Shown here in pieces: positions 5,935 to 61,654 of a stretch of DNA of 64,000 bases. This DNA is from Deltaproteobacteria bacterium (lineage in GTDB: Bacteria; Myxococcota_A; UBA9160; UBA4427), in NCBI GenBank assembly GCA_029261855.1, contig JAJDAN010000021.1, positions 193,923-257,922 on the forward strand, in the 5' to 3' direction. A program made the position numbers and the translations under genes. The notes under the pieces are model-generated. The model made no database searches. It saw only the letters and a program-made list of their open reading frames with translations, and had not been told where the DNA came from. Numbering within the stretch: position 1 is the first letter of the stretch; each line of letters begins with the position of its first letter.

Positions 5935-6372
5935 TCACACGTCGACGAGCAGGGTCACGGGCCCGTCGTTGGTGAGGTGGACCTGCATGTGCGCCCCGAA
6001 GCGACCGGTGATGACGGACACACCCTCCTGTCGCGCCGTGTCGATCAGTCTCGAGAGGAGCGGCTCCGCCACCTCGGGAGGGGCCGCTTCGCCAAAGAAC
6101 GGACGTCGACCCTTGCTGCAGTCCCCGTACAGGGTGAACTGTGAGACGACGCCGAGTGTGCCTCCCGCGTCCAGCAGCGACCGGTTCATGCGGCCCTCCG
6201 CGTCGGGCAGCACGCGCAGATGGACGAGCTTGCGCGCCATCTCGTCGGCGCGCGCGAGGTCGTCCCCCTGCTTGACGGCGACCAGGCACAGCAGCCCGGA
6301 GGACATGACTCCGACGACTTCGTCGTCCACCACCACCCGCGCCGATGCCACGCGCTGGACCACCGCGCGCAC
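5935..6372 (-). CDS. dtd: D-aminoacyl-tRNA deacylase
   Basis: 145 aa. MRAVVQRVASARVVVD...GLLCLVAV...SQFTLYGDCSKGRRPFF...GRFGAHMQVHLTNDGPVT matches the Dtd family throughout. GTG start. Confidence 0.9.
   Translation of the reverse strand: MRAVVQRVASARVVVDDEVVGVMSSGLLCLVAVKQGDDLARADEMARKLVHLRVLPDAEGRMNRSLLDAGGTLGVVSQFTLYGDCSKGRRPFFGEAAPPEVAEPLLSRLIDTARQEGVSVITGRFGAHMQVHLTNDGPVTLLVDV

Positions 6373-9424: not shown

Positions 9425-9428
<4 letters not shown>
8352..9428 (-). CDS. queG: Epoxyqueuosine reductase (tRNA queuosine biosynthesis)
   Basis: It has two 4Fe-4S ferredoxin motifs (CGTCRACLDACPTDAF, CDVCQDVCPFN), CISYTTIE, and C-terminal HEAT-like ALVVAGN. I start it at GTG 9428, which forms a GTGA overlap with the exosortase stop. 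The track start at 9512 would overlap that gene by 88 nt. Confidence 0.9.
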
Positions 9429-11786
<2,358 letters not shown>

Positions 11787-11883
11787 TGGGACCCCTTGAC
11801 TGAACGCGGGCTGACGGTCGGCCGAAGAGACCCTACAGCCCGTCGCCGAAGACCCAACCCTCGTTGAACCCAGGAGCCCCCGG

Positions 11884-12897
11884 GTGCAAGACAAGCTGCT
11901 CTTCCTGATCGGACCGCCCCGTTCCGGGTCGACCCTGCTCACGCGCATGCTGGGCAGCCACAGCGCGGTCCATGCGCCCGACGAGCCGCACCTCCTGACT
12001 CCCCTCGCGCATCTCGGGGTCTTCGCCAAGGTCGACCGCGCCCCCTACGACCCGATCATCACGGAGCTGGCCATGCGCGAGCTCGTGAAGGCGCTGCCCG
12101 GCGGTGAGCAGGACTACCTCGCCGCCCTGCGCGGCATGACCGATGCGCTCTACGAGAAGCTGCTGGCGCCGAGCGGCCGCCAGATGCTGCTCGACAAGAC
12201 ACCCGCCTATTCGCTGGTGCTCGACTTCGCGGCGAAGCTCTATCCCGAAGCGCACTACATCGTCCTGACCCGACAGCCCCTGGCCGTCTGGTCGTCGTAC
12301 GTCGAGTCGTTCTTCGACGGGGACGAAGGGGCGGCACACCGCCACCAGCCGCTGCTCGAGCGCTACGTCCCCGCCATCGCGCGCTTCCTGCGCGAACGTC
12401 CCGCCCCGGTCTGCCACGTCCGCTACGAGGACCTGGTGAAGGACCCCGAGACCGAAGTGGCCCGCATCTGCTCCTTCGCGGGCCTGCCCTTCGAGCCGGA
12501 CATGATCGACTACGGGAAGAAGCCCGAAGGTGCAAAAGAATCGGCCCGGGGACTGGGCGACCCCATGACCGTCGCCAAGCAGAGCCGCCCCACCACCGCG
12601 TCCCTCGACAAGTGGACCGAGGCGCTATCGGGGCAGCCGGCCAAGATCGCCCAGTGCCAGGAGATCCTGGCCTCCCTCGCAGACGAAGACCTCGAAACCT
12701 GGGGCTACACCCGGGGCGACCTCGAGGCCGAGCTCGCCGGCATCGACCCGGGCGGCCCCCGGAAGCCGCGTCCCAAGCTCACCCGCTACCGCCTGGAGCG
12801 CCTGGCGGTCACGCGGCTGCGCAAGAACATCCACCACAACGCCCTCGGGGCACTCCTCCGTCGCATCCGCTGGGCCTGCGACGTGCTGCTGCGCTGA
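11884..12897 (+). CDS. Sulfotransferase, TPST/RaxST-like (Sulfotransfer_3-type) by eye
   Basis: GTG start with SD AGGAG 7 nt upstream. The PAPS 5'-phosphosulfate loop is LIGPPRSGSTLLTRML, and a 3'-PB-like segment reads IVLTRQPLAVWSS. The blocks LLDKTPAYSLVLDFAAKLYPEA, VRYEDLVKDPE and ASLDKW align by eye with tyrosylprotein sulfotransferases. Confidence 0.8.
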   Translation: MQDKLLFLIGPPRSGSTLLTRMLGSHSAVHAPDEPHLLTPLAHLGVFAKVDRAPYDPIITELAMRELVKALPGGEQDYLAALRGMTDALYEKLLAPSGRQMLLDKTPAYSLVLDFAAKLYPEAHYIVLTRQPLAVWSSYVESFFDGDEGAAHRHQPLLERYVPAIARFLRERPAPVCHVRYEDLVKDPETEVARICSFAGLPFEPDMIDYGKKPEGAKESARGLGDPMTVAKQSRPTTASLDKWTEALSGQPAKIAQCQEILASLADEDLETWGYTRGDLEAELAGIDPGGPRKPRPKLTRYRLERLAVTRLRKNIHHNALGALLRRIRWACDVLLR

Positions 12898-12934
12898 AGC
12901 GAGCACGATCCCAGAAGTGCTATAGGTCTTCGCC

Positions 12935-13066
12935 ATGAACGAGAACACCGCCCGAACCGAGACCGCCGAGTCCTCGCGCTACGAGTCGCCGACCATCGAG
13001 CTGATCTCCCTGGATTGTGAGATCTCCTCCTATGCGCCGGACGATGGGGACATGCCGCTCTTCTAG
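12935..13066 (+). CDS. Unlisted 43-aa acidic Tyr-containing peptide (candidate sulfotransferase substrate / RiPP-like precursor)
   Basis: The ORF runs from ATG 12935 to TAG 13064-13066, same strand and 37 nt after the sulfotransferase stop. It is below the ORF-track size cut-off. Translation: MNENTARTETAESSRYESPTIELISLDCEISSYAPDDGDMPLF. By hand count, 38 of 43 codons end in G/C (coding-like here), with 10 D/E versus 2 R. There is no good SD. Confidence 0.45.
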   Translation: MNENTARTETAESSRYESPTIELISLDCEISSYAPDDGDMPLF

Positions 13067-13217
13067 CGTCGCGACCGGCGGTTCGCCGCATGGGTCCGAA
13101 TCGAAGCGCGCCCAACAGCGCGTCGGATGTCTGTGCGTTTCCTAGACGCGCGCCGTCTGCTCCTGCAGTCCTGTCCGCGCCGATGAGCCACGGGCGCTTT
13201 CCCGGGCGGAGCCGATC

Positions 13218-13946
13218 ATGCTGAAGCGAATCTGGCAGGCCATCTACCGCGTCGTCCGGACCTACTTCGTCGCCGGCTTGCTGGCCTTCGCGCCCATCGG
13301 CATCACGTTCTGGGCCATCGCCTGGATCATCACCCGGCTCGACAACCTGCTGCTGCCCCGGGTGATCCAGTGGGTCTCTCCCGGCCTCGACCAGCCGCCG
13401 GACATTCCGCCCCTGGTCGGCGCGCTGTTCACCTTCCTGGTGATCCTGATGGCCGGCGTCATCGTGCGGCACTTCTTCGGCCAGGAAGTCGTGCGCCTGT
13501 GGGAAGCCCTGCTGTCTCGAGTGCCCGTCGCGCGAACGATCTACGGCGCCGTCAAGCAGCTTCTCGACGCGGTCCTGCAGACGGGCGACACGAACTTCAA
13601 TCGCGTCGTGCTGATCGAATACCCGCGCAAGGGGATCTGGGCACTGGCCTTCACCACCGGGCAGACCCGCGGTGCGGTCGCGGCCGCCATCCCCGACAAG
13701 AAGCTGATCAACTGCTTCCTGCCGACGACGCCGAACCCGACCTCTGGCTTCTACCTCGCGATCCCGGAAGAGGACATCACCGAGGTCGCGATCAGTGTCG
13801 AGGACGCCTTCAAGGTGATCATGTCCGCCGGCCTCGTGACCCCGGGCCTCGCGAACACGGGCCGCAACGGAGGCGGTCGTCTACCGGCGGGCGCGACGCC
13901 CACGCAGCCTGCCCCGACTGCGCCCGGGTCCGAACCCGAGTCCTGA
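13218..13946 (+). CDS. DUF502-family membrane protein
   Basis: The N-terminal TM pair (YFVAGLLAFAPIGITFWAIAWI), VPVARTIYGAVKQL, VLIEYPRKGIWALAF and LPTTPNPTSGFY are typical of DUF502. SD GGAG is upstream. Confidence 0.8.
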   Translation: MLKRIWQAIYRVVRTYFVAGLLAFAPIGITFWAIAWIITRLDNLLLPRVIQWVSPGLDQPPDIPPLVGALFTFLVILMAGVIVRHFFGQEVVRLWEALLSRVPVARTIYGAVKQLLDAVLQTGDTNFNRVVLIEYPRKGIWALAFTTGQTRGAVAAAIPDKKLINCFLPTTPNPTSGFYLAIPEEDITEVAISVEDAFKVIMSAGLVTPGLANTGRNGGGRLPAGATPTQPAPTAPGSEPES

Positions 13947-13954
13947 TCCCGCGA

Positions 13955-14911
13955 TCAGCGGCGGGAAACCTTCGCCACCAGATCCTGGACCCCCTCGTGC
14001 TGGAACAGCCCCAGGGTGTCTCCGTTCTCGAGCATGGACGTCACCTCGGGGTCCTGAGCCAGGGCCTGGAGATCCGGGTCGTCGACCAGCCCCTTCACGC
14101 GCGGGCCGACTTCGGCGAGCACCTCCCCGAAATGCCGCTCGAAGGCGGCCGGGTCATCGATCGTGGCCTCGGGGACCACGCCCACGTCGACGAAGCGCGA
14201 ACGCATCTCCGGGTCGCTCGAGATGGCGCGGAAGCTCTGGCGGTTCATGGCGCGGGGGTAGGCACCGTTCTCGATCAGCGTCCAGAAGAAGCGATCCTGC
14301 TGCAGGGCCTCGATGCGCGGGTCGGCGAGAATCGCCTGCACACTCGTGACGGCGACTCCCGGTCGCGACGCGAGTCGCGCCATGACGTCCGCCGTCGCCA
14401 CGTCTGCATCCACCGTCGCACTCACGGCCTTCTCGACGAGCTTCTCGGTGACCTTTGCGGCGGACGAGATGCGGATGTCCGGCACGGCCTCGAGCCCGTC
14501 GACGGCACCGGTCTGCTTCGCCGCGTCGAGCCAGATCACGAGGTAGGACACGAGCACGACCACCAGCGCACCGCGGACGGCGCCGATCACGCCACCGACC
14601 CAACGGTTGGCCACGCCGAGTGACGAGTCGCCCCGCAGCCGGTTCGTCGCATGGCGGATCACGGCGCCGAGCCCGCCCACCACGAGCGCCGTGACGAAGA
14701 AGCCGACGGTGCCGGCGACGACCGGGGCGAGCAGAGGCGAGAAGCCGGTCTTGTCGGCAAGCGACGCACCCAGGTTCTGGGCCGCCCACACCGCACCGGC
14801 ATACGAGGCGATGAGGGTGAACAGGCCGAGGGCGCTGGCCACGCCGCCGCGCAGCGCGCCGATCAGCGCGAAGATGGCGAGGATCGCCAGGGCGACGAGA
14901 TCGAGAATCAT
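13955..14911 (-). CDS. cvpA: CvpA-family membrane protein with C-terminal extension
   Basis: The N-terminus MILDLVALAILAIFALIGALRGGV plus four TM segments is typical of CvpA. A ~170-aa soluble tail follows. Confidence 0.75.
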   Translation of the reverse strand: MILDLVALAILAIFALIGALRGGVASALGLFTLIASYAGAVWAAQNLGASLADKTGFSPLLAPVVAGTVGFFVTALVVGGLGAVIRHATNRLRGDSSLGVANRWVGGVIGAVRGALVVVLVSYLVIWLDAAKQTGAVDGLEAVPDIRISSAAKVTEKLVEKAVSATVDADVATADVMARLASRPGVAVTSVQAILADPRIEALQQDRFFWTLIENGAYPRAMNRQSFRAISSDPEMRSRFVDVGVVPEATIDDPAAFERHFGEVLAEVGPRVKGLVDDPDLQALAQDPEVTSMLENGDTLGLFQHEGVQDLVAKVSRR

Positions 14912-25813: not shown

Positions 25814-27643
25814 TTGCGATTGAGCGCGTGTAGATGTGTGGCTGCTGTTCTCGCGCTGGCGTTCTGCGCGGTCCCCGGACACGCGGCGGACCGTGCGGGG
25901 GAGCTCGCCCGGGAACGACTGCTCGAATCGCTTCGCGACAGCGGGCGGGTGAGCGACGCCCTGCTCGCCGCCTATGCGGAGTCCGACCGCGTCCCCGTCA
26001 TCGTCACCCTCGAGGTTCCCGAACGGCACGCCCTGACCCGGCGAGCGCGGCGCGACCGCATCCGAGAGCGCGCCGACGATGCCCTGGCAGACTGCGCGCC
26101 GGCGGACTTCCGGTTGCGCCACCGCTTTCGTCACGCCGCCGGCTTCGCGGGCGAACTGCACCTGCGCGCGGTCCGGGGTCTACTCCGGAATCCCGCCGTG
26201 CGCGACATCGATCTCGACGGCGGGGGCCACGGCGCGCTGTACGAGAGCATGGGCCTGACCGGCGGCTACACGGCGAGCACCGCCGGCTTCAGTGGCGCGG
26301 GGATCACCGTCGCCGTTCTCGATTCGGGCGTCGACACGGACCACCCGGACTTCGCGGGCGCCCTCGTCGACGAGCACTGCATCTGCCCGGGTTGCTGCCC
26401 GAACGGCCAGGGCGTACAGACGGGGCCCGGCGCCGCCGAGGACGACAACGGCCACGGCAGCCTGGTCGCCGGGGTCGTGCTGTCTCGCGGCAATGTCGCG
26501 TCCATCGGGATGGCACCCGCCGCCGATCTCGTGGCCGTGAAGGTTCTCGACGACGGATTGGCGTTTGCGGCCACCTCGGACATCGTCGACGCCCTCGACT
26601 GGGTGATCGACAACTACACCGCCGCGCCGCCGACACCGTCGACGGTGCGCGTGGTGAACATGAGCCTCGCCACGGGAGCGACCTTCCCGGACACGTCCCC
26701 CAACGACTGCGGCGACGGCGGCGGTGCGGTTTCCCTGCTCGGACAGGCGGTCGACGAGCTCGAATCCCGCGGCGTACTCGTCGTCGCCGCGGCAGGCAAC
26801 ACGGCGAACAAGACTGCACTTCCGGCTCCGGCCTGTCTCTCGAACGTGGTCTCCGTGGGCGCCACCTGGGACCAGGACCTGGGACCGGAGCCGACGCCCT
26901 TCGGCTGCAGCGAGACCGGAACGATGCCGGACCAGATCACCTGCTTCTCGAACGCGCCGGCGCACATGAACGTGTTGGCACCGGGGGCGCGCATCACCGG
27001 TCCGAATCTGGAAGGCGTGCTCGGCGTGTCGCTCGGCACTTCCTTCGCGTCCCCCGCGGTGGCGGGCTGCGCGGCGCTGCTCATCGCCCAGGACGACATG
27101 CGCACACCTGCCGAAGTCGCCGGGCTGATTCTGGCATCCCCCGTCCTCGTGACGGACCCCGCGACGATGTTCGGCTTCCCGCGCCTCGACTGCGCGAATG
27201 CCCTGGGACTGTTGCCGGGAGACGACGACTCGGACTTCGACGGCATCACCGTCGATGACGGCGACAACTGTCCGGCGGACTTCAACCCGGCTCAGGGAGA
27301 CATCGAGGACGACATCGTGAATGCCAGTGCGGGCGACGGCGTCGGCGACCGCTGCGACGTCTGCGTCTTCGTCATCGACCCGGACCAGACCGACAGCGAC
27401 CAGGACGGCCTCGGCGACGCCTGCGTGTGCACCGGTCCGGATCTGTGGCCCGGCGACGTGGACGGCAACGGTGAAGTCGACGACCAGAGCGACATCTTCA
27501 TCCTGGGCTTCAACTTCGGAAACAGCGGTGGCGTCACCCCCGCCCAGGGCGACCAGAACTGCGACGACGTGATCGACGGCGCGGACTACACGCTGTGGGC
27601 CGACCACTTCGGCCGCCTCTCGAGTGAGGCCGACCTGCCCTGA
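25814..27643 (+). CDS. Secreted subtilisin-like S8 serine protease with C-terminal TSP3-like and dockerin-like Ca-binding repeats
   Basis: The signal peptide is VAAVLALAFCAVPGHA. The catalytic triad motifs are VAVLDSGVD, NGHGSLVAG and GTSFASPAVAG. The C-terminus has DSDFDGITVDDGDNCP, DPDQTDSDQDGLGDAC, GDVDGNGEVDD and CDDVIDGADYTLW. TTG start, uncertain. Confidence 0.9.
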   Translation: MRLSACRCVAAVLALAFCAVPGHAADRAGELARERLLESLRDSGRVSDALLAAYAESDRVPVIVTLEVPERHALTRRARRDRIRERADDALADCAPADFRLRHRFRHAAGFAGELHLRAVRGLLRNPAVRDIDLDGGGHGALYESMGLTGGYTASTAGFSGAGITVAVLDSGVDTDHPDFAGALVDEHCICPGCCPNGQGVQTGPGAAEDDNGHGSLVAGVVLSRGNVASIGMAPAADLVAVKVLDDGLAFAATSDIVDALDWVIDNYTAAPPTPSTVRVVNMSLATGATFPDTSPNDCGDGGGAVSLLGQAVDELESRGVLVVAAAGNTANKTALPAPACLSNVVSVGATWDQDLGPEPTPFGCSETGTMPDQITCFSNAPAHMNVLAPGARITGPNLEGVLGVSLGTSFASPAVAGCAALLIAQDDMRTPAEVAGLILASPVLVTDPATMFGFPRLDCANALGLLPGDDDSDFDGITVDDGDNCPADFNPAQGDIEDDIVNASAGDGVGDRCDVCVFVIDPDQTDSDQDGLGDACVCTGPDLWPGDVDGNGEVDDQSDIFILGFNFGNSGGVTPAQGDQNCDDVIDGADYTLWADHFGRLSSEADLP

Positions 27644-38190: not shown

Positions 38191-39272
38191 CAGGGCTCCT
38201 GGGTTCGGGCCAGCACCGCCTCGAAGACCGGGGTGGCGCGAGACGAGAAGGTAGCGCCCGGCTCGCGAACGATGAAATAGGCGGCCATTCCGCGCTCCAC
38301 GGCGAGCGTGTAGCCCGCTTCTGGCCCGAGCACGTTGAGCGCCGTCGCCCAGGCGTCGGCGAGCATCGTCTGGGGATGCAGCACGGTCACCGATGCCAGG
38401 GCGTGACGGATCGGCGCTCCCGTGCGCGGATCGATGGTGTGTGAGATCCGTACGCCGTCGACCTCGTAGTAGTTGCGGTAGTCACCCGAAGTGGCCATGC
38501 CGCGGTCTTCGAGGGGGATCACCTGGTGGATCACGCGCGCGTCGTCCACGTCGGGCTCTTCGATGGCGACCTGCCAGGGCTCGCCGTCCGGGCGGCGGCC
38601 GCGTGCCCGCAGCTCGCCGCCGATCTCGACCAGGTGGTTGGCATGACCGAGACGCATGAGATCGTCGGAGACCGCGTCCACCCCGTAGCCCTTCGCCAGG
38701 GCCGACAGGTCGATCACGACGTCGGGCCGCAGTTTCACCAGCGCGTCGCCGACCACGGACACGCGCTCCCACCCGACGCGCTCGCGCAGGCTCTTCAGCT
38801 CCGCGGGTCCGGGGCCACCCGGAATGCGGGCACCGTCCCCGAAGCCCCAGGCCTGGACCAGCGGGCGGATCGTGACGTCGAACGCGCCGCCCGATGCCTG
38901 CGCGACCCAGCGCGCCGCGGCGACGACCCCGGCCGTCTCGGGGGACACCGGGAAGGGCGCCGTCGCGGCGTGGCGGTTGAAGCGCGAGATCTCTGACTCC
39001 GGGTCCCAGGTGGACATCTGCGCGTTGACGGCCGTGAGCCGTTCGACGATGGCCTCGCCCACCGCGGCGTGCTCGTCCTGGGTCAGGGACGGCGCAGCCA
39101 CCTTGACGAGGAAGCGCGTGCCCATGGTCTCGCCCGAGAACTCGAACTCGGGACCGGGCAGATCCGCGAAAACCAGCCGGTGCAGCGAAGCCGTCACCAG
39201 AACGACGGCCGAGACCGCCAGGATCACGATCGCGCGCGGGGTCAGGGCTCCCTTGCCGAGCGGAGCTCCCAT
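38190..39272 (-). CDS. apbE: FAD:protein FMN transferase ApbE
   Basis: The start is the internal ATG 39272 (the track ORF extends into nqrF). ETMGTRFLVKV, LAKGYGVD, MATSGDYRNY and SHTIDPRTG are ApbE motifs. Confidence 0.9.
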   Translation of the reverse strand: MGAPLGKGALTPRAIVILAVSAVVLVTASLHRLVFADLPGPEFEFSGETMGTRFLVKVAAPSLTQDEHAAVGEAIVERLTAVNAQMSTWDPESEISRFNRHAATAPFPVSPETAGVVAAARWVAQASGGAFDVTIRPLVQAWGFGDGARIPGGPGPAELKSLRERVGWERVSVVGDALVKLRPDVVIDLSALAKGYGVDAVSDDLMRLGHANHLVEIGGELRARGRRPDGEPWQVAIEEPDVDDARVIHQVIPLEDRGMATSGDYRNYYEVDGVRISHTIDPRTGAPIRHALASVTVLHPQTMLADAWATALNVLGPEAGYTLAVERGMAAYFIVREPGATFSSRATPVFEAVLARTQEP

Positions 39273-39285
39273 GCAGGAAACGCGA

Positions 39286-40512
39286 TCAGCCGCCGAAGTC
39301 GTCGAACATGACGTTCTCGGGCTCGACACCCAGGTCGGTCAGCATCTGGATGACGGCGTCGTTCATCATGGGCGGACCGCAGATGTAGTACTCGCAGTCC
39401 TCCGGCGCCTCGTGGTCCTTGAGATAGTTGTCGAAGAGGACCTGGTGGATGAAGCCCGTCAGGCCGGCCCAGTTGTCTTCCGGCTGCGGCTCTGAGAGCG
39501 CCAGATGCCACTCGAAGTTCTCGTTCTCTGCGGCGATCGAATCGAAGTCCTCGACATAGAACGCCTCGCGCAGGCTCCGCGCGCCGTACCAGAAGCTGAC
39601 CTTGCGATTCGTGTGCAGGCGGCGGAACTGATCAAAGATGTGCGAGCGCATCGGCGCCATGCCGGCGCCGCCACCGATGAAGATCATCTCGTTCTCGGTG
39701 GGCTTGGCGAAGAACTCGCCGTACGGCCCCGAGATGACGACGTCGTCGCCCGGCTTGAGGCCGAACATGTACGAAGACATGATCCCCGGCGGCACGTCGG
39801 GCATGCGCGGCGGCGGCGATGCGATCCGCACGTTGAGCATGATGATGCCCTTCTCGTCCGGATAGTTCGCCATCGAATAGGCGCGTTCGACGGTCTCCTC
39901 GACCTTGGAGATGTACTGCCACTGGTTGAACTTGTCCCAGTCGCCCCGGTACTCGTCCTCGATCTCGAAATTCTTGTAGGCAACCTCGTGAGGTGGGCAC
40001 TCGATCTGGATGTAACCACCGGCGCGGAACGGGACCTCTTCACCGGCGGGTAGCTCGAGCACGAGCTCCTTGATGAAGGTCGCGACGTTGTGGTTCGAAC
40101 GGACCTTGCAGGTCCATTTCCGGACGTGGAAGACCTCCGCGGGGATCTCGATCTTCATGTCCTGCTTGACCTTCACCTGGCAGGACAGTCGGCAACCCTC
40201 CCGGGCCTCGCCTCGGCTGATGTGCGTGAGCTCGGTGGGCAGGATCTCGCCCCCGCCTTCGAGCACCTTCACCTCGCACACCCCGCAGGTCCCCTGCCCG
40301 CCGCATGCGGACGGGATGAAGATCTGGTTGTTGGCGAGGGTGTTGAGCAGGGTCCCACCCGCCGCCGTGGTGAGGGAGTTCTCGGGGTCGTCGTTGATGT
40401 TGATCGTGACGTCGCCGCTCTGCACAAGGCGACCCTTCGCGACGAGCAACACACCCACGAGGATGAGGATCGTAACGGTGAAGCCAACGACGCCGAAGAG
40501 GACGGTTTCCAT
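39286..40512 (-). CDS. nqrF: Na+-NQR subunit F
   Basis: It has an N-terminal TM segment, a 2Fe-2S motif ([12 protein letters not shown]...C), FAD-binding RAYSMANYP and an NAD-binding GGGAGMAPM. Confidence 0.95.
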
Positions 40513-40524
40513 ATCAAGAGCTTC

Positions 40525-40590
40525 CTAGAGCTGAGTCCCGGAACTGCTAGAGCTGAATGCCCGAACTGCTAGAGCTGAATGCCCGAAAAG
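40525..40590. repeat. Three tandem 22-nt copies of the nqrE 3' end including its stop codon, filling the nqrE-nqrF spacer
   Basis: The plus-strand units are ctagagctgagtcccggaactg (40525-40546), ctagagctgaatgcccgaactg (40547-40568) and ctagagctgaatgcccgaaaag (40569-40590). The last unit carries the true nqrE stop and final codons (FSGIQL*). Confidence 0.85.
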
Positions 40591-41180
40591 GCCATGAAGC
40601 CGACGGACATCAGGCCCACGACGATGAAGGTGGCCCCCAACCCGCGCAGTGCCGGGGGCATGTTGCTGTACCGGAGCTTTTCGCGAATCGCCGCGAGCGC
40701 CGCGATGGCCAGCGCCCAGCCGATCCCCGAACCGAGACCGAAGACCGTGGCCTCGCCCAGGCTGTAGTCGCGCTCGACCATGAAGAGCGAGGCGCCGAGA
40801 ATGGCGCAGTTCACCGCGATCAGGGGCAGGAAGACGCCCAGTGCGTTGTAGAGCCCGGGTGAGTAGCGGTCCAGCGCCATCTCGACGATCTGCACCGTCG
40901 CCGCGATCGTCCCGATCAGCACGAGGAAGCTCAGGAAGCCGAGGTCGACGTCCGGCAACCCCATCCACGCCAGCGACCCTTCCCCGAGGAATTTGGTGCT
41001 CAAGAATTGGTTGAGCGGAGTCGTGACGGTCAAGACGAAGATGACCGCACCACCGAGCCCGATTGCTGTGTCGACCTTCTTCGAGACGGCTAGGAAGCTG
41101 CACATCCCGAGGAAGAAGGCCAGAGCCATGTTCTCAACGAAGATTGCCTTCGTGGCCAGGCTCAAGTAGTGCTCCAACAT
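40569..41180 (-). CDS. nqrE: Na+-NQR subunit E
   Basis: [35 protein letters not shown] is near-identical in pattern to Vibrio NqrE. 203 aa. Confidence 0.95.
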
Positions 41181-41805
41181 GGAACTCCTCCTCCACTTGC
41201 TCAGGCTTCCAACTGCGAACCACCCAGATGAAGCCGCCGATCAGAAAAAATGCTGCCGGGGCGAGGACCATCAGGCCATTCGGCACGTACCAGCCGCCCT
41301 CGTTCACCGTCTGTAGGATCGTTACGCCGAAGAGCTTCCCGCTGCCGAACAGCTCACGCACGAAGGCGACGACGATCAGGATGATCGCGTAGCCGAAGCC
41401 GTTCCCCAGCGCGTCCATCAGGGACATCTTCACCGTGTTCTGCATCGCGAACGCCTCGGCGCGCCCCATGATGATGCAGTTCGTGATGATCAGGCCGACG
41501 AAGACCGAGAGCTGCTTCGAGACGTCGAACACGAAGGCCTTGAGGATCTGGTCGGTCACGATCACCAGCGACGCGATGATCGTCAGCTGCACGATGATGC
41601 GGATGCTGGACGGAATCTGGTTGCGAATCGCACTGATGGCGACGTTCGAACCGATCAGCACTGCGATCACTGCCAGACTCATGACGAGCGAAGTCTCGAG
41701 CTTGGTGGTCACCGCCAGCGCCGAGCAGATGCCCAGCACCTGCAGCGCGATCGGATTGTTGTTGAACAGCGGGTCGAGCAGTGCTTCTCGTTCGGCCTTC
41801 GCCAT
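41134..41805 (-). CDS. nqrD: Na+-NQR subunit D (C-terminus extends 47 nt into nqrE)
   Basis: The start is the internal ATG 41805. [23 protein letters not shown]...[17 protein letters not shown]...KPEQVEEE is present. The frame then continues for 15 extra residues past the usual end. Confidence 0.9.
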
Positions 41806-42584
41806 CAGGTACTCCCTCCCGCTCGCTGCGTGTCCAGATAGGGCCCGAAGCCGTCCTGCCCCAGCCAGAAGCGCACCAGGTTCCCGACGCCGCGGCTGGT
41901 AATGGTCGCGCCCGAGAGCCCGTCGACGTTGTACGGGTCGGTCTCCGGAGGCCCGGCCATGCCCTTCTTGACGGCGATCACCGGCTTGCCCCGCTTGTCG
42001 AAGGCCTTGCGACCCTTCCACAGGGCCTTCCAGCGCGGATTGTCGACCTCACCGCCCAGGCCCGGGGTTTCACCGTGCTCGTAGAACGTGATCCCGTCGA
42101 TGGTCTCCAGGTCCGCATCGATCGCGATGTAGCCGTAGAGCGTGGACCACAGCCCGGCGCCGGAAATCGGAATGATGATCGACTGCAGGCGCCCGTCGGT
42201 GACCACCTGGAAGACCTGCCCCTGGTTCGGCAGCCGCTGCACCTTCGCCGCGTTCGTCGGCGCCGGGTGACTGGCTTCGGGGTCCTTCGCGGCCTTGCGC
42301 TGATCGAAGCTCGACGCGTCGACGCCCTCGAGCACGACGCCCGTCTCGAGGTCGACGATCACCGGCACGATGTTGGTCTCGAAGCGCTTGGCCACCTCGA
42401 CGCGCGAGAGGCTCTCGCCCTCTTCCATCAGACCCGCGACGACGAGCACCTTCTTCTGGCGATCCAGCTCGACGTTCGCCTGCTGCCGCTCTTCGAGAAG
42501 TACCGAGGCCCCGGACACGAAGACGGAGCAGACGGCACAGACCGCCGCCGCGAAGAGCAGGATGTAGCTCGTACTATGTTGCAT
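41805..42584 (-). CDS. nqrC: Na+-NQR subunit C
   Basis: It has an N-terminal TM segment, [20 protein letters not shown] and the FMN-attachment site [11 protein letters not shown]. Confidence 0.95.
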
Positions 42585-43791
42585 AGCCGGCCTCGCGCCT
42601 GCGGATGTTCGCCTGGACGATGAAGTGGTCGATCAACGGCGCGAACATGTTCATGAAGAGGATCGAGAGCATCATGCCCTCGGGATAGGCCGGGTTCACG
42701 ACCCGGATCAGGATGCAGAGCACGCCGATCCCGATGCCGTAGTACATCTTGCCGACGTCCGTGAACGCGGACGAGACCGGGTCGGTGGCCATGAAGACCA
42801 TGCCGAACGCCCAGCCGCCGAGGACGAAGTGCCAGTAGAAGGGAACGGCGAAGAGCGGGTTCGTGGCGGAACCCGCCAGATTCAGGACCAGCGCCATGCC
42901 GATCGTCCCGACGACGACACCGAGCATCGTGCGCCAGGACCCGATGCGAGTCACCAACAACAGCCCCGCCCCCAACAGGCAGGCAAAGGTCGATGTCTCA
43001 CCCATCGACCCGGGGATGAGCCCGAAGAAGCTCTTCCACCAACTCGCGGCTTCCAGGGCGCCGGAGGTGACTGCGGCCTGGGCGAGTAGCGTCGCGCCCG
43101 TGAACGAGTCGACGCCCGAGAAGTTCGCCGCGATCCAGGGGGCGTCGCCGCTCATGTACGCGGGATAGGCGAAGAAGAGGAACGCACGTCCGACCAGGGC
43201 CGGGTTCAGGAAGTTCATCCCCGTCCCGCCGAACACCTCCTTGCCGAAGATGATCCCGAACGCGATGCCGATGAAGACCATCCAGAGCGGAATCGTCGGC
43301 GGCAGGGTCAGGGGGAACAGCATACCGCTGACCAGGAAGCCCTCGTTGACCTCGTGCCCGCGGATCGAGGCGGAGGTGACTTCGACCAGGCCACCCGCAG
43401 CCATGGTCGTGATCAGCACGGGCAGGTAGTAGAGCGACCCGTGGATCACGCACAGGATCGGGTTCGTGTTCCTGAACGAGAAGCCGAGCTCGTGGAGGAG
43501 CCAGCTCTGCCAGTTGTCGAGGGGCAGCGCGCCGCTCGCGATGGCGAACTGGGCCTGGTAGCCGGTGTTGTACATGGCCCACAGGATGCAAGGGATGAGC
43601 GCGATGACGACGCTGAACATCATCCGCTTGAGATCCATCCCATCGCGCACGTGGGACGAGGTTTGCGTGACCTCCCCCGGCGTGTAGAGGATGGTGTCGT
43701 GCATCTCGTACAGGGGATAGAGCTTCTCGAGCCGCCCCCCCTTTTCGAAGAGCGGCGCGGCCTTGTCGAGAGCGTCGCGAATCGGATCCAT
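42574..43791 (-). CDS. nqrB: Na+-NQR subunit B
   Basis: The start is the internal ATG 43791 (TGATG junction with nqrA). It is a polytopic membrane protein with FTGATLLAQ and GSMGETS, typical of NqrB/RnfD. Confidence 0.95.
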   Translation of the reverse strand: MDPIRDALDKAAPLFEKGGRLEKLYPLYEMHDTILYTPGEVTQTSSHVRDGMDLKRMMFSVVIALIPCILWAMYNTGYQAQFAIASGALPLDNWQSWLLHELGFSFRNTNPILCVIHGSLYYLPVLITTMAAGGLVEVTSASIRGHEVNEGFLVSGMLFPLTLPPTIPLWMVFIGIAFGIIFGKEVFGGTGMNFLNPALVGRAFLFFAYPAYMSGDAPWIAANFSGVDSFTGATLLAQAAVTSGALEAASWWKSFFGLIPGSMGETSTFACLLGAGLLLVTRIGSWRTMLGVVVGTIGMALVLNLAGSATNPLFAVPFYWHFVLGGWAFGMVFMATDPVSSAFTDVGKMYYGIGIGVLCILIRVVNPAYPEGMMLSILFMNMFAPLIDHFIVQANIRRREAGYAT

Positions 43792-45194
43792 CAGCCTTCC
43801 TTTTCCAGGATCTCGAGGTTCGCGCGGAGGATGGGGCCGTAGTTCGTCTTCCCCGGGCACACGAAGGTGCAGAGCGCGAGATCTTCCTCGTCCAGCTCGA
43901 GGGCCCCGAGCCGCTCCGCCTGCTCGACGTCACCGATGATCAGTGAACGCAGCAGGAAGGTGGGCAGGATGTCGAAGGGCAGGACGCTCTCGTACATGCC
44001 GATGGGCACCATGGCGCGGGGCGAGCCGTTGACGTTCGTCGAGAGCGCGAAGCGCTTCTTCGAGAAGAGCTTCGAGAGATAGATGGGGAAGATCGAGAAG
44101 GCATCGAAGCCCGGCGTGAGCCAGCCCAGGAGCACCCGCTCCGTCCCCTCGCGCAGGACGCTCACCTGCCGGTCGTAGCGACCGAGGTAGCCGAACACGT
44201 CTCCCATGGCCTTCTTGCCGGACAGCACCGATCCGGCGATCAAGCGGACGTCCAGGTCGCCCTCCGGACCGCGACAGCCGTCGCCAGCCACGTCGGCGAC
44301 GTCGGCGCCCCGACGCGTGCGGACGAGCCCGGCGTCCTGCACGGGCGGACCGGCCACGGACACGATGCGCTCGACGTCGAGCTTTCCGGTCGCGAACAGC
44401 GCACCGATCGCCGCGACGTCCGCGTAGCCCAGATGCCACACCACGCGCGCTCGGCCCACCGCGCACAGGGTGTGGATGTGGAAGCCGACGGTGCCCGACG
44501 GATGGGGCCCCGTGAAGTGCTCGACCTGCACCGGCGCGGTCACACCCTTCTCGATGCCCGACACAGGGTCGACGCAGAGATAGGTGGGCCCCTCGGTCAG
44601 CTTGCAGACGACCTGAAGGCCGCGCTCGAAATCCGCCGCGCGACCGTCGAGAGCGATCTCCGGGAGCGGGGCCAAGGGATTGGTATCGGTCGCCGTGACG
44701 AAGATCGCAGCCGGCGCCGAATCGATCGCAGGCACCTTGCTGTACGGGCGTGCGCGAAGCGCCGTCCACTCACCGGACTCGACGAGTAGCGCCACGATCT
44801 CATCGCGCGTCAGGCTGGCGACGGGCTTGCCCGTGAAGTGCTCGAACGTGACCCGCTCGGAATCCGGTACTTCGTTCGGGTGGGCCGCATCGCGCTCGGC
44901 GGGCGACAGATCGATCACCACGGACTGGAGCGCTCGCCTTGCGCCCCGGTTCACGCCGATGACACGACCCGCACCCGGTGCGGTGAAACGCACACCCGGG
45001 TTCTTGCGATCCTCGAACAGGACCTGGCCGCGCTTGACCGAGTCGCCTTCCTTTACCTGCATCGCGGGCTTCATGCCCGGGAAGTCGTCGGCCATGATCG
45101 CGATGCGCTGGGGTCTCACCTGCCCGCGCACGACCTGGATGGGCGCGCCGCTAATGGGGAGGTCGAGCCCCTTCTCAGTTTTGTGAAGAGCCAT
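43791..45194 (-). CDS. nqrA: Na+-NQR subunit A
   Basis: The N-terminus MALHKTEKGLDLPISGAP is typical of NqrA. 467 aa, first gene of the operon. Confidence 0.95.
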   Translation of the reverse strand: MALHKTEKGLDLPISGAPIQVVRGQVRPQRIAIMADDFPGMKPAMQVKEGDSVKRGQVLFEDRKNPGVRFTAPGAGRVIGVNRGARRALQSVVIDLSPAERDAAHPNEVPDSERVTFEHFTGKPVASLTRDEIVALLVESGEWTALRARPYSKVPAIDSAPAAIFVTATDTNPLAPLPEIALDGRAADFERGLQVVCKLTEGPTYLCVDPVSGIEKGVTAPVQVEHFTGPHPSGTVGFHIHTLCAVGRARVVWHLGYADVAAIGALFATGKLDVERIVSVAGPPVQDAGLVRTRRGADVADVAGDGCRGPEGDLDVRLIAGSVLSGKKAMGDVFGYLGRYDRQVSVLREGTERVLLGWLTPGFDAFSIFPIYLSKLFSKKRFALSTNVNGSPRAMVPIGMYESVLPFDILPTFLLRSLIIGDVEQAERLGALELDEEDLALCTFVCPGKTNYGPILRANLEILEKEG

Positions 45195-59043: not shown

Positions 59044-59670
59044 CTAACGCCGGCGCGCGACGAGTTCCTCGAGGACCACCGCGTTCTCGTCTTCGCGCTC
59101 GGCCGCGGCCAGCAGGGCGGCCTTGGCTTCCGGGTCCGTCTCCTGTCCCGCCCAGCCGCGGTAGAGGGCACCCCCGGATCGTTCGAGGCGCGCCAGCAGG
59201 TCCTGCCGGTCGAGCGTCCCGCCGTCGGCGAAGAGTGCTCCCAGCTGCTCTTCGGCGGACACCTCACGCGGCAGCACGATCTGCGTCTGGGTGACGAGTG
59301 CGACGAGACGACCGTCCTCGCGCGTGATCCGCGTCTGCCAGACCATCGTGCGCCGTCCCTTGTGCAGGGGCCGGCACTCTCCCCGCACCTTCGCCTGGCT
59401 CGGCGCCTTCGAGAAGAAGTTCGTCTTCGACTCGATGGTCGTGGTTCCGTCGCCCGGGCTCAGGCTCAGCACTGTCCCGTAGGCACCCAGGGTGTCTGCG
59501 AAGGCCATGATGGCGCCCCCGTGCATGACGCCCGGCGTGGTGCAGAGCGCTTCGGTGACGAAGAGCTCCGCCTCGATGCAGTCGGGTTCGGCGCGGAGAA
59601 ACTGGACACCGAGGGTCTCCGGAAGGAGACCCTGGGTGGTCTGCTGCACGGTCGCGAGATCCATTTCCAT
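59044..59670 (-). CDS. PaaI/hotdog-fold thioesterase with ~65-aa C-terminal extension
   Basis: The start is the internal ATG 59670. LGVQFLRAEPDCIEAELFVTEALCTTPGVMHGGAIMAFADTLG...ESKTNFF is typical of the PaaI family. Confidence 0.8.
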   Translation of the reverse strand: MEMDLATVQQTTQGLLPETLGVQFLRAEPDCIEAELFVTEALCTTPGVMHGGAIMAFADTLGAYGTVLSLSPGDGTTTIESKTNFFSKAPSQAKVRGECRPLHKGRRTMVWQTRITREDGRLVALVTQTQIVLPREVSAEEQLGALFADGGTLDRQDLLARLERSGGALYRGWAGQETDPEAKAALLAAAEREDENAVVLEELVARRR

Positions 59671-59761
59671 CGCGCAAGGGAACCCCAGATCGCACGTCGC
59701 GACAGGGCCCATTCCGCCAGAAATCAGGGGACCAATCCGGGGCGCCGATCCGAACGCGACA

Positions 59762-60262
59762 TCAGGGCTCCCAGGCGCACAGTCGCACCCGATCCCGCGG
59801 CGGGTTCGAGAACCCGGCCCCGGGCTTCCAGCCACTTTCCTTCATGACTTCGAGCATGTGCACCATGTTGATCAGGTCCTGCTCGAAGCTGAATTTGCCA
59901 TCCCCGGCGTATCGGATGCGGGACATGCCGGGTACCTGGTAGTAGCTGCCGTCCGGCCGATGGCCGGGAAGACGGTTCTGCCAGCCCGTGATCAGGCAAT
60001 CGCCTTCGAAGGCGATCCATTCCAGCGGGAAGGTCCAGTCTTCGAGGCCGCGCATGCTGTCCTCGAGAAACTGGACGATGGCATCGAGACCATCGACCCG
60101 GCCCCAGGCCGGGTCGACGAAGGTGGCGTCCGACGTGAAGTGGTCGCGCAGTGCGTCCCACCAGAGTTCGCCGGCGTCGATGCGCTCGCGGGTCTTCTTG
60201 TAGGCCTCGTAGGCCTGTGCGAGCTCCTCCTGCTGGAACCTTGCCTGCGCGGAACCTGCCAT
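59762..60262 (-). CDS. NTF2/SnoaL-like fold protein (tentative)
   Basis: ATG 60262 has SD GGAGGAGG upstream. The length (~166 aa) and pattern (TFVDPAWGRVDGLDAIVQFLEDSM...WIAFEGDCLITGW) resemble SnoaL_2/NTF2-family proteins. This is a by-eye call only. Confidence 0.5.
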   Translation of the reverse strand: MAGSAQARFQQEELAQAYEAYKKTRERIDAGELWWDALRDHFTSDATFVDPAWGRVDGLDAIVQFLEDSMRGLEDWTFPLEWIAFEGDCLITGWQNRLPGHRPDGSYYQVPGMSRIRYAGDGKFSFEQDLINMVHMLEVMKESGWKPGAGFSNPPRDRVRLCAWEP

Positions 60263-60337
60263 GGCGTCTCCTCCTCCCGCGGGACGATAGGCCAATCGGC
60301 CCAGGGCTCGGCTGCGAGACGAGGTAATCTCGGGGAC

Positions 60338-61654
60338 ATGCGCGCAGCCGCCGTCGCCTTGGTCGTCGCCCTTGCCGTCTCCCTGGCAGCCCTTGCAGGC
60401 TGCGTCGCCACCACGCCCATGGTCGACGACGTGCCCCCGGGAACGCCCGCCGCCATCGACGGGCTGTGGCTCGACACGACGGCCAACGTCCGGGTCCAGA
60501 TCGGGGCCGGCCGCATGTGGGCGGACGAGGCCTACACCAGCGGCATCTGGCGCAACCGCAAGGGCCAGATCCAGGCCGTCAACGTGCGCCGCACGGGCCC
60601 CCGCAAGTTCGAGGGCTGGAACCCCGGCTACCAGGGGCCGTACTACTTCTACGTGCAGGACGACGGCCGCCTGGCCTTGTTGCTACGCACCAAGTTGTTC
60701 GGCGACTACCAGGCGTTCCTCGAGCGGCTTTCCCTCGACGACGAAGCTGCCTACGCGGCAGAAGAAACCCAGGCGGATCCGGGACTCCCGTGGCAGGACC
60801 CGGCCGTGATGAAGACACAGCTCGCTACGGCGGCGACGCCAGCGACAGCCCCGACTCCGCCGACACCACCGACGTCGCCGGCGTCGTCGCCGGGCGGGAG
60901 CGCCCTTGCGCCGACGCCCTTCCAGGCGCCGGCGGATGTCGACTTCGGCCGCTACTACGCGCTGCTCATCGGGAACAACGGCTACAAACATCTCCCGCGT
61001 CTGGTGTCGGCCGAGTCCGACGTGGATGCCATCGAGAAGGTGCTCGAGAACCGATACGGCTTCGAGACGCGCGTGCTCGGCGACGCGTCCCGGGACGATG
61101 TCCTGCTGGCGCTCGAGCAGTACCGGCGCCAACTTACCCCCCGCGACAACCTGCTGATCTACTACGCCGGTCACGGTTGGCTCGACGAGGACGCAGACGA
61201 GGGATACTGGCTGCCCGTGGACGCGACCGCCGAGAGCAGCATCAATTGGATCCCCAACGCGACCCTCACCTCCGCGCTGAAGGCCATCCAGGCGAAGCAC
61301 GTCCTGGTCGTCGCGGACAGCTGCTATTCCGGCAAGCTCACCCGTGGCATCTCCGTGCGAGCGAACCGCCCGCCGGACCATTTCGCGCGCATGGCGGGCA
61401 AGCGAGCGCGCATGGTGATCTCGTCCGGCGGGCTCGAGCCGGTGCTCGACGGCGGCCGCGGGAATCACTCGGTGTTCGCGGGCGCCTTCCTCGACGCGCT
61501 CGAGCAGAATGACGGCATCGTGGACACGACCACGCTCTTCTCGCGCATTCGCCGGGACGTCATGCTGCACGCGGACCAGACCCCTGAGCTGGCAGACATC
61601 CGCAAGTCCGGCCACGAGGGAGGCGACTTCCTCTTCGTCCCGAAGGACCGTTGA
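60338..61654 (+). CDS. Caspase-fold (peptidase C14) lipoprotein
   Basis: The start is the internal ATG 60338 of track ORF 59492..61654. The lipobox is LAALAGCV. A Pro/Thr-rich linker follows. The C14 domain has YALLIGNNGY, the catalytic His (LIYYAGHG) and the catalytic Cys (VVADSCYSG). Confidence 0.85.
   Translation: MRAAAVALVVALAVSLAALAGCVATTPMVDDVPPGTPAAIDGLWLDTTANVRVQIGAGRMWADEAYTSGIWRNRKGQIQAVNVRRTGPRKFEGWNPGYQGPYYFYVQDDGRLALLLRTKLFGDYQAFLERLSLDDEAAYAAEETQADPGLPWQDPAVMKTQLATAATPATAPTPPTPPTSPASSPGGSALAPTPFQAPADVDFGRYYALLIGNNGYKHLPRLVSAESDVDAIEKVLENRYGFETRVLGDASRDDVLLALEQYRRQLTPRDNLLIYYAGHGWLDEDADEGYWLPVDATAESSINWIPNATLTSALKAIQAKHVLVVADSCYSGKLTRGISVRANRPPDHFARMAGKRARMVISSGGLEPVLDGGRGNHSVFAGAFLDALEQNDGIVDTTTLFSRIRRDVMLHADQTPELADIRKSGHEGGDFLFVPKDR

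Follow-up and report, generated by a model that had tools for sequence, protein, structure and literature searches.

What is the function of a small open reading frame (ORF) that lies just downstream of a sulfotransferase gene in an uncultured member of the Myxococcota? The ORF is in a stretch of 64,000 nt (about 68.6% G+C) from contig JAJDAN010000021.1 of genome assembly GCA_029261855.1; we will refer to this entire stretch as the window. An earlier note on this DNA proposed that the enzyme and the peptide form a dedicated pair, with the peptide being sulfated on tyrosine. We found that the ORF is a genuine gene, and profile comparisons identify its product as diverged kin of PqqA, the peptide precursor of pyrroloquinoline quinone (PQQ).

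The ORF is a conserved gene

The ORF runs from 12935 to 13066 on the plus strand, including the stop codon, and encodes MNENTARTETAESSRYESPTIELISLDCEISSYAPDDGDMPLF. Its start codon lies 37 nt beyond the TGA of the sulfotransferase gene, on the same strand, as the earlier note described. Our recounts also agree with that note on codon usage and composition. Of the 43 codons, 38 end in G or C (as compared to 22 at the first position and 20 at the second), and the flanking spacers show no third-position periodicity. The peptide has 10 acidic residues (Asp or Glu) and two basic ones (Lys or Arg), with tyrosines at positions 16 and 33. Just 2 of the 101 ATG-initiated ORFs of 35-60 amino acids in the window combine a G+C fraction of at least 0.88 at third positions with one of at most 0.5 at second positions.

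We compared this locus to two sets of related loci. The enzyme-anchored set is 80 loci that were fetched via the sulfotransferase (57-83% identical, and all from Myxococcota-type metagenome-assembled genomes, or MAGs); 77 of these are informative. The peptide-anchored set is 80 loci that were fetched from metagenomes via the peptide, of which 72 are informative for the upstream gene and 70 for the downstream gene. With a hidden Markov model built from the peptide, we recovered a same-strand peptide ORF downstream of the enzyme in 57 of the 80 enzyme-anchored loci, and the ORF is present in all 80 peptide-anchored loci. In total, the peptide gene is found with its frame intact in 138 loci. Across 58 orthologs, the codons for Pro19, Cys28, Glu29, Ala34, and Pro35 have no diversity at their first two positions and a diversity of 0.22-0.59 at the third, and the pooled ratio of nonsynonymous to synonymous substitution rates is around 0.4 (20 codons). 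Because the ORF recurs across loci, and because its invariant codons vary at the third position only, it must be a real gene: it is a genuine small gene under purifying selection. The Logan gene-calling pipeline independently calls the same ORF.

The peptide looks like the precursor of a RiPP (a peptide that is made on the ribosome and modified after translation). A search of 5.8 billion proteins gives about 1,485 members of the family at E ≤ 10, and the best 120 of these are all nameless or annotated as "hypothetical protein." When the family's profile was run against 1.84e9 proteins in an exhaustive hmmsearch, it gave around 100 clusters at 50% identity. Members of the family all come from a single group of Myxococcota-type MAGs.

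Similarity of the peptide to PqqA

The alignment of the family divides the peptide into three parts. The N-terminal region (amino acids 1-15; 12935..12979, plus strand) is hydrophilic and variable: only the initial methionine is conserved, and the region differs between lineages in both length and sequence. The core, as delimited by hhalign and by matches to TIGR02107, is YESPTIELISLDCEISSYAP (amino acids 16-35; 12980..13039, plus strand). It contains an aromatic-x-x-P motif, an invariant Cys28-Glu29, and Tyr33, which is four residues past the glutamate. The consensus of the core across the family is aromatic-x-x-P-x-x-E-x-I-x-L-x-C-E-I-S/T-A/S-Y-A-P (20-26 residues). In the 58 orthologs, Pro19 and Glu29 are always present, Tyr33 is present in 57, and position 16 is aromatic in 54 (Phe in 22, Trp in 19, and Tyr in 13). 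Finally, the acidic tail DDGDMPLF (amino acids 36-43; 13040..13063, plus strand) is conserved and specific to this family. Its consensus is D-x-x-D-x-P-L-F, at the C-terminus, with Pro41 and Leu42 invariant and Asp36 and Phe43 over 90% conserved. Canonical PqqAs lack the DxxDxPLF tail.

The earlier note had remarked in passing that YESPTIELISL and the pair Glu29-x3-Tyr33 resemble parts of PqqA. This was the right lead, as several comparisons assign the family to the PqqA superfamily. First, no families other than the PqqA families PF08042 and TIGR02107 are matched by more than two members of the peptide family (7 and 10 of 43 members, respectively; the best E is 0.0054, and the best for PF08042 is 0.044). 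The matches to TIGR02107 are in register and cover the full 21-position model (positions 1-19 or 1-20).

Second, we used hhalign to compare the family to eight PqqAs from plasmid records (six that are annotated as pqqA and two unannotated PqqA ORFs). The two alignments matched over 20 columns, in register, with a probability of 90.7% and a score of 28.3. Sixty shuffles of the columns gave scores of 7.0 ± 1.7, with a maximum of 12.4.

Third, below the family proper, the exhaustive hmmsearch returned peptides that fit the pattern ...WTTPxFEEISLNCEINSYAxAEL, with E-values between 1e-5 and 1e-3. Six of the ten peptides of this type that we tested pass the curated cutoff of TIGR02107, which is 20 bits (they score 21.0-34.8 bits), and the passing peptides are encoded immediately upstream of PqqB-PqqC-PqqD-PqqE. 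One of the peptides in a pqqABCD operon, P0350, contains the octapeptide CEISAYAP, just as most members of the peptide family do. We used the PqqAs from the exhaustive search that pass the cutoff and lie in pqqABCDE operons as a second reference set. hhalign matched the family to these operon-validated PqqAs over 26 columns (98.5%, E = 3.8e-15), and both have the core SLxCEIxxYA. The cysteine before the glutamate is also found in an operon-linked sub-group of PqqA and is not specific to the peptide family.

The hallmark of PqqA, which is Glu-x3-Tyr with aromatic-x-x-P ahead of it at a fixed spacing, is thus present in the peptide. Judging from the profile comparisons with the plasmid and operon-validated PqqAs, the peptide is a homolog of PqqA, and its family is a divergent branch of the PqqA superfamily. 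This homology would also explain why Tyr33 is conserved. (A tblastn search of plasmids with a family member as the query found no PqqA.)

Within the family, one sub-clade, whose core is ISLCCEISAYAPDGDDxPLF, has another conserved block, ME(E/S)RIxRPATSFGD, at its N-terminus. The MEERIxRPATSFGD sub-clade comprises the peptides of L033, L037, L038, L050-L052, L054, L055, L058-L060, L063, L067, L068, L071, L075, L077, and L080. The block might serve as a motif for leader recognition. In every enzyme-anchored locus of this sub-clade, the sulfotransferase and the peptide are both present.

Two other observations arose from these searches. Three long repeat proteins, P0341 (995 amino acids), P0344 (854), and P0345 (1556), have 4-11 matches each to the profile, in repeats such as SDISHPYKSPEIEGISLV or NPSAEVISLFCERASQD. 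These matches are probably a chance likeness to the aromatic-x-x-P-x-I-E-x-I-S-L segment. Also, on the Roseomonas marmotae plasmid p1318-3 (L162, 6001-9052), an unannotated PqqA ORF, MAWKKPRVVEVCLGMEINCYEGAEV, lies directly before pqqE. After pqqE come a gene for a "quinoprotein relay system zinc metallohydrolase 2" and one for a SoxYZ-like carrier. The 6 kb that we covered contain no pqqB, pqqC, or pqqD, which is an unusual arrangement.

A promoter-like box upstream of the peptide

A conserved box, TGCTATAGG, lies at 12918..12926 on the plus strand and ends 8 nt before the ATG of the peptide gene. It resembles an extended -10 element (TGn plus TATAGG). The box, which is conserved as TGCTAT(A), is visible only by comparison across loci. 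Of 131 loci, 109 have TGCTA no more than 260 nt upstream of the core; among random windows of that length, 3.1% have it. In 84 of the 109, an in-frame ATG begins 6-8 nt after the TAnnnn hexamer. Across all of the loci that we collected, just 85 of 13,646 ATGs have this geometry, which is essentially unique to the peptide gene. In a minority of loci, the box is farther upstream and is followed by GGAGG. A scan of 12600-13400 for the strict sigma-70 consensus and for intrinsic terminators gave no match and left the TGCTATAGG box unscored.

We infer that the box is the peptide's own promoter, of the extended -10 type, and that it probably yields an mRNA that is leaderless or nearly so. In the window, the TGCTATAGG box also lies within an imperfect palindrome, GAAGTGCTATAGGTCTTC (12914-12931), as seen in the sequence of the window only; this could be an operator.

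Is the peptide a precursor of PQQ?

We think it slightly more likely than not that the ORF is an independently transcribed and previously unannotated gene for a PqqA-type precursor, with processing most likely by PqqD/PqqE-type proteins that are encoded elsewhere in the genome. If so, the peptide would be transcribed from its own promoter as a leaderless mRNA. By analogy with PqqA, a PqqD-type chaperone would bind the aromatic-x-x-P...I-x-L segment, and a PqqE-type radical S-adenosylmethionine (SAM) enzyme, encoded elsewhere in the genome, would cross-link Glu29 and Tyr33. This would yield PQQ or a compound similar to it.

There are precedents for pqqA genes that lie away from pqqBCDE and are transcribed alone: pqqA2 and pqqA3 of Methylorubrum extorquens AM1, and five copies in Methylovorus sp. 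MP688 (PMC11317620). Another unlinked copy is an annotated pqqA that stands alone on a Methylocystis plasmid. The peptide family shares this unlinked location with the orphan genes of methylotrophs, but those genes encode ordinary short PqqAs in known producers of PQQ, while the peptide family is strongly diverged. Genes for PqqA are routinely missed or left as "hypothetical," and here an entire sub-family had gone unrecognized.

Several observations weigh against a PqqA-type precursor. The peptide of the window itself has no match in Pfam or NCBIfam; for PF08042 and TIGR02107, this holds even at E ≤ 10. The best of its sister sequences reach 13.3-16.6 bits with TIGR02107, which is below the cutoff. 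The closest known system to the peptide family is the PqqA sub-group (TIGR02107/PF08042) with the sequence W-T-x-P-x-F-E-E-I-S-L-N-C-E-I-N/S-x-Y-A-x-A-E-L. Both are small ribosomal peptides with the same register (an aromatic residue, x-x-P, nine residues to the glutamate, and a tyrosine four later). In contrast to that sub-group, the family falls below the curated cutoffs and never adjoins pqqB-E in the 138 loci, and its APDxxDxPLF tail, its N-terminal extension of 15-40 residues, and the MEERIxRPATSFGD block have no counterpart in PqqA. These family-specific features suggest an additional or different partner.

The potential partners of a PqqA are missing from the vicinity as well. tblastn (E < 1e-3) found no PqqB, PqqC, PqqD, or PqqE in 1.67 Mb of sequence (the 64-kb window and the 160 loci), and there is no pqqB-E or radical-SAM gene within 8-10 kb of the peptide in any of the 138 loci. 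None of the ORFs in the window has the radical-SAM motif CX3CX2C, and Pfam identified no maturase or quinoprotein among about 45 ORFs of the window. A search of the literature for a PqqA-like family, or for PQQ synthesis, in Myxococcota turned up nothing relevant. Last, the sulfotransferase is the immediate upstream neighbor of the peptide in roughly 60-75% of loci, which would leave room for a facultative interaction.

Alternatively, these Myxococcota may lack pqqBCDE, and the peptide may be derived from PqqA and have a role other than making PQQ, whether with DUF502/CvpA or elsewhere in the cell. The peptide would be unmodified, or modified by an unrecognized enzyme, and the APDxxDxPLF tail and the N-terminus would carry its function. 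We take this possibility seriously, but on balance we doubt it. The absence of pqq and radical-SAM genes near all 138 copies fits with it, as do the conserved features of the tail and the N-terminus that are foreign to PqqA.

The location of the gene also fits with a non-PQQ role. The peptide has a fixed site within a block of housekeeping genes, and in half of loci it is followed by a gene for a DUF502 membrane protein on the same strand, with short gaps and no terminator. (In the window, this usual downstream neighbor is at 13218..13946, plus strand; PF04367, E = 5e-34.) In the peptide-anchored loci, the next gene encodes DUF502 in 35 of 70 cases, CvpA without DUF502 in 23, and another protein in 12. 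The gap between the peptide gene and DUF502 ranges from 6 to 235 nt, with a median of 72. In the window, the scan of 12600-13400 found no terminator in the spacer between the two genes, and folding of the spacer showed no significant structure (z = +1.3). DUF502 may be co-transcribed with the peptide. In two loci that are missing the peptide, L008 and L039, the box lies directly before DUF502.

On the other hand, the strongest constraint in the peptide is on the residues that are chemically important in PqqA (Glu-x3-Tyr and aromatic-x-x-P). The peptide is also kept in the 23 loci with CvpA next and the 12 with other genes, all without DUF502, and no candidate partner co-varies with it. We also set aside the idea that the ORF is a regulatory upstream ORF or an arrest peptide for DUF502, as the peptide is kept without DUF502 and the spacer can be as short as 6 nt or as long as 235.

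In another version of this scenario, which we consider unlikely, these Myxococcota lack pqqBCDE and the PqqA-derived peptide, with its invariant Cys-Glu-x3-Tyr and its PLF ending, is the precursor of a different product, such as a new cofactor or peptide derived from Glu, Tyr, and Cys, with an unrecognized maturase. In those lineages where it is present next door, the CurM/TPST-like sulfotransferase might also act on the peptide.

If pqqBCDE are present elsewhere in the genome, then the ORF would be the missing gene for the PQQ precursor in this uncultured group of Myxococcota, and it would exemplify a pqqA that is fixed in place, unlinked, and driven by a leaderless promoter. If pqqBCDE are absent, it would be a PqqA-derived peptide in a new use, which would be of interest to biochemists who study RiPPs and cofactors.

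Is the peptide a substrate of the sulfotransferase?

The dedicated pair of the earlier note would have the adjacent sulfotransferase O-sulfate Tyr33, and perhaps Tyr16, to make a sulfated RiPP similar to RaxX. The arguments for it are that the two genes lie on the same strand, 37 nt apart, and often adjoin in other loci as well; that the enzyme is in the same Pfam family and fold branch as TPST1/2; and that Tyr33 is near-invariant, with an acidic, Pro/Gly-rich tail after it. There are also precedents for the sulfation of RiPPs in bacteria (RaxST, MbnS, and SslST; PMC11143521). Nevertheless, nothing specific points to sulfation of the peptide, and we consider it improbable, for several reasons.

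First, each of the two genes is often found without the other. In the 77 informative enzyme-anchored loci, the peptide gene directly follows the enzyme in 47, follows it past an inserted M50 gene in 10, and is absent from 20. In the 72 informative peptide-anchored loci, the upstream gene is the enzyme in 42, the M50 gene in 3, GH1 without the enzyme in 12, and another gene in 15 (in most of these, the divergent exosortase). In other words, 27 of 72 peptides have no sulfotransferase immediately upstream, and in these the core of the peptide is unchanged. For instance, the peptide of L082, which has no sulfotransferase, differs from those of L002 and L081, which do, at 3 residues of 29. In the tree of the sulfotransferases, the loci without the peptide form one clade of 10-11 loci and at least six scattered groups, and their sulfotransferases retain all of the invariant and catalytic motifs.

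The earlier note had reasoned that a true pair would keep the ORF, undisrupted, wherever the sulfotransferase is kept. The loci go part of the way toward refuting the pair on these grounds: in two of the 20 that lack the peptide, L041 and L043, its gene is decayed. In L041 (~5990-6070) and L043 (~10706-10798), an ORF of 22 codons, MNVLHRHTAGESEE(R/Q)PL(H/L), comes after a TGCTATAC box. This looks like a peptide gene whose PqqA-like core has been deleted, beside an intact sulfotransferase and an M50 gene.

The pairing is facultative in both directions, and each gene is stable alone. Because each is stable without the other, their adjacency is best explained by shared ancestry, that is, by the inherited gene order of the block. 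We caution that even a tight, same-strand adjacency of an acidic, tyrosine-containing peptide and a TPST-like enzyme, and one that is kept in most relatives, can be inherited gene order.

Second, the peptide has its own promoter-like box. Third, the earlier note placed both tyrosines in acidic contexts that are typical of sulfation. Tyr33 is near-invariant and has the acidic tail after it, but the residue that precedes Tyr33 is Ala in 51 of 58 orthologs and Ser in the other 7 and is never acidic, and position 16 is not kept as Tyr. Also, homology to PqqA would account for the conserved tyrosine.

Fourth, a comparison to RaxX and RaxST of Xanthomonas shows several differences. In both systems, a small peptide gene lies beside a gene for a PAPS-type sulfotransferase, and the two enzymes are in the same broad family (PAPS is 3'-phosphoadenosine 5'-phosphosulfate). 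To the eye of the earlier note's author, the peptide does not resemble RaxX. In RaxX and the PSY peptides, an acidic residue immediately precedes the sulfated tyrosine (the D-Y motif). The window's peptide has no such residue, it has no GG leader, and its pairing with the enzyme is facultative, whereas a precursor and a sulfotransferase of the RaxX type would be expected to be inherited as a unit. We concur with the earlier note that a RaxA/RaxB-type peptidase-exporter is missing: no RaxB-type peptidase-exporter or secretion signal was identified among the annotated genes of the window, and the N-terminus of the peptide is hydrophilic and is not a signal peptide. Nor do these annotated genes include one for PAPS synthesis, an exporter, or a leader peptidase.

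Fifth, the sulfotransferase is closer in sequence to other enzymes than to the TPSTs. Its gene (11884..12897, plus strand, with stop codon TGA) encodes a PAPS-type sulfotransferase of 337 amino acids that matches Sulfotransfer_3 (PF13469, E = 7e-35) and, secondarily, PF00685 (E = 6e-11). The only hit in NCBIfam is to NoeE (98.5 bits, which is below the cutoff). With the profile of the enzyme's family, we found the sulfotransferase domains of CurM (4gbm, E = 9e-27) and OLS (4gox, E = 1e-25) ahead of TPST1/2 (E = 5e-10 to 4e-8). With the single sequence from the window, the values are E = 6e-19 for CurM/OLS and about 2e-3 for TPST2, and this sequence is about 26% identical to the CurM domain. 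So by sequence, its closest solved relatives are the CurM/OLS sulfotransferases, and the TPSTs are more distant.

In an AlphaFold2 model of the enzyme (pLDDT 74), the picture is more even. The best hits from Foldseek were the CurM sulfotransferase, TPST1 (5wrj, TM-scores of 0.59/0.71), and TPST2 (0.52-0.57), while cytosolic SULTs fit less well (0.3-0.4). The model superimposes about equally on the CurM domain and on TPST1/2, which does not separate a TPST-like from a CurM-like enzyme. Judging from the model, the enzyme does belong to the structural branch of the TPSTs and the CurM sulfotransferase. The enzyme shares its phosphosulfate-binding (PSB) loop, an E-x-H motif, and its overall fold with the CurM and OLS domains and with TPST1/2, and its loop sequence, PPRSGST, is invariant among its relatives. 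The label "TPST-like" is thus true of the fold branch, but in sequence the enzyme is nearer to CurM/OLS and NoeE, and the label says nothing about the acceptor. We expect that the sulfotransferase has its own, different substrate. Overall, the decoupling of the two genes, the peptide's own promoter-like box, the lack of an acidic residue before the tyrosine, and the enzyme's greater similarity to CurM/OLS argue against a dedicated sulfotransferase/sulfated-peptide pair.

The sulfotransferase also has a feature with no counterpart in CurM or TPST, which is a conserved pair of basic helices at the C-terminus (residues 301-336). In the model, residues 301-337 (12784-12894) form two strongly basic helices with low confidence. 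Arg301, Arg306, Leu312, Arg313, Asn315, Ile316, His317, Asn319, Ala320, Gly322, Arg329, Cys332, Leu335, and Arg337 are invariant. These helices could be an element for binding to the membrane or to a partner.

The relationship to CurM raises the question of whether the enzyme could activate the peptide, with sulfation of Ser31/Thr31 or of Tyr33 creating a leaving group for elimination or for cyclization with Cys28. The nearest characterized relatives, the CurM and OLS sulfotransferases, are activating enzymes, and the core of the peptide has an invariant cysteine with a serine or threonine three residues on. (The CurM and OLS sulfotransferases are "activating" domains of polyketide synthases; the enzyme from the window is stand-alone.) But C-E-I-(N/S/T) is found in ordinary PqqAs from pqq operons that have no sulfotransferase, and the genes for the peptide and the enzyme are decoupled, so we consider this very improbable.

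Finally, the ORF is short and is annotated in any source as a "hypothetical protein" at most, but the idea that its frame is open by chance, or that it is an element of the spacer that does not code for protein, is already refuted by the comparative data: by its codon-position substitution pattern, by the intact frame in 138 loci, by the roughly 1,485 database proteins in around 100 clusters, and by a search of Rfam over 11500-14000, which gave sub-threshold noise only.

Neighboring genes and other features of the window

The peptide gene lies within a syntenic block of about 20 kb of vertically inherited housekeeping genes, in a slot that is fixed between an exosortase and DUF502/CvpA. To the left of the slot are genes for LptD, a cNMP-binding protein, a thioredoxin-like protein, GDPD, a methyltransferase, QueG, and, on the opposite strand, the exosortase. 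From the slot rightward are the peptide, DUF502 (in some loci), CvpA (on the opposite strand), a betaine ABC transporter, ChaC, GreA, and a Ser/Thr kinase. L170 and L171 show this same gene order over a long stretch.

In the window, the constant left edge of the slot is the exosortase (EpsH family; 9425..10480, minus strand; PF09721, E = 1e-59), which is divergent from the peptide. The constant right edge is a CvpA-family membrane protein (13955..14911, minus strand; PF02674, E = 2e-18), which is convergent with the peptide. We rejected the idea that the peptide is a substrate of the exosortase, as it has no PEP-CTERM-like motif or transmembrane tail.

The part of the slot before the peptide is variable: it may contain GH1, the sulfotransferase, an M50-CBS protease, or various combinations of these. 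In the window, a GH1 beta-glucosidase (10434..11786, plus strand; PF00232, E = 6e-147; the gene call is from L169) is upstream of the sulfotransferase. In about 14 loci, the gene immediately upstream of the peptide is an insertion that encodes an M50/site-2-protease-like metalloprotease; it has HELGH and NLLPGxPLDGGR motifs, and its CBS domains are C-terminal. These are L009, L018, L020, L030, L042, L048, L053, L056, L069, and L078, in which the enzyme and the peptide are about 1.2 kb apart, as well as L138, L143, L145, and L171. Another three loci (L039, L041, and L043) have the M50 gene with no intact peptide gene.

Elsewhere in the window, three features are unrelated to the peptide. A cluster on the minus strand (38193-45194) encodes a Na+-translocating NADH:quinone oxidoreductase (NqrA, an NqrB/RnfD-like protein, an FMN_bind protein, an Rnf-Nqr subunit, and an NqrF-like protein) together with the flavin transferase ApbE. 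A 609-amino-acid subtilase (25814-27640, plus strand) and a 720-amino-acid protein with a C-terminal caspase domain (Peptidase_C14; 59492-61651, plus strand) are both ordinary for Myxococcota.

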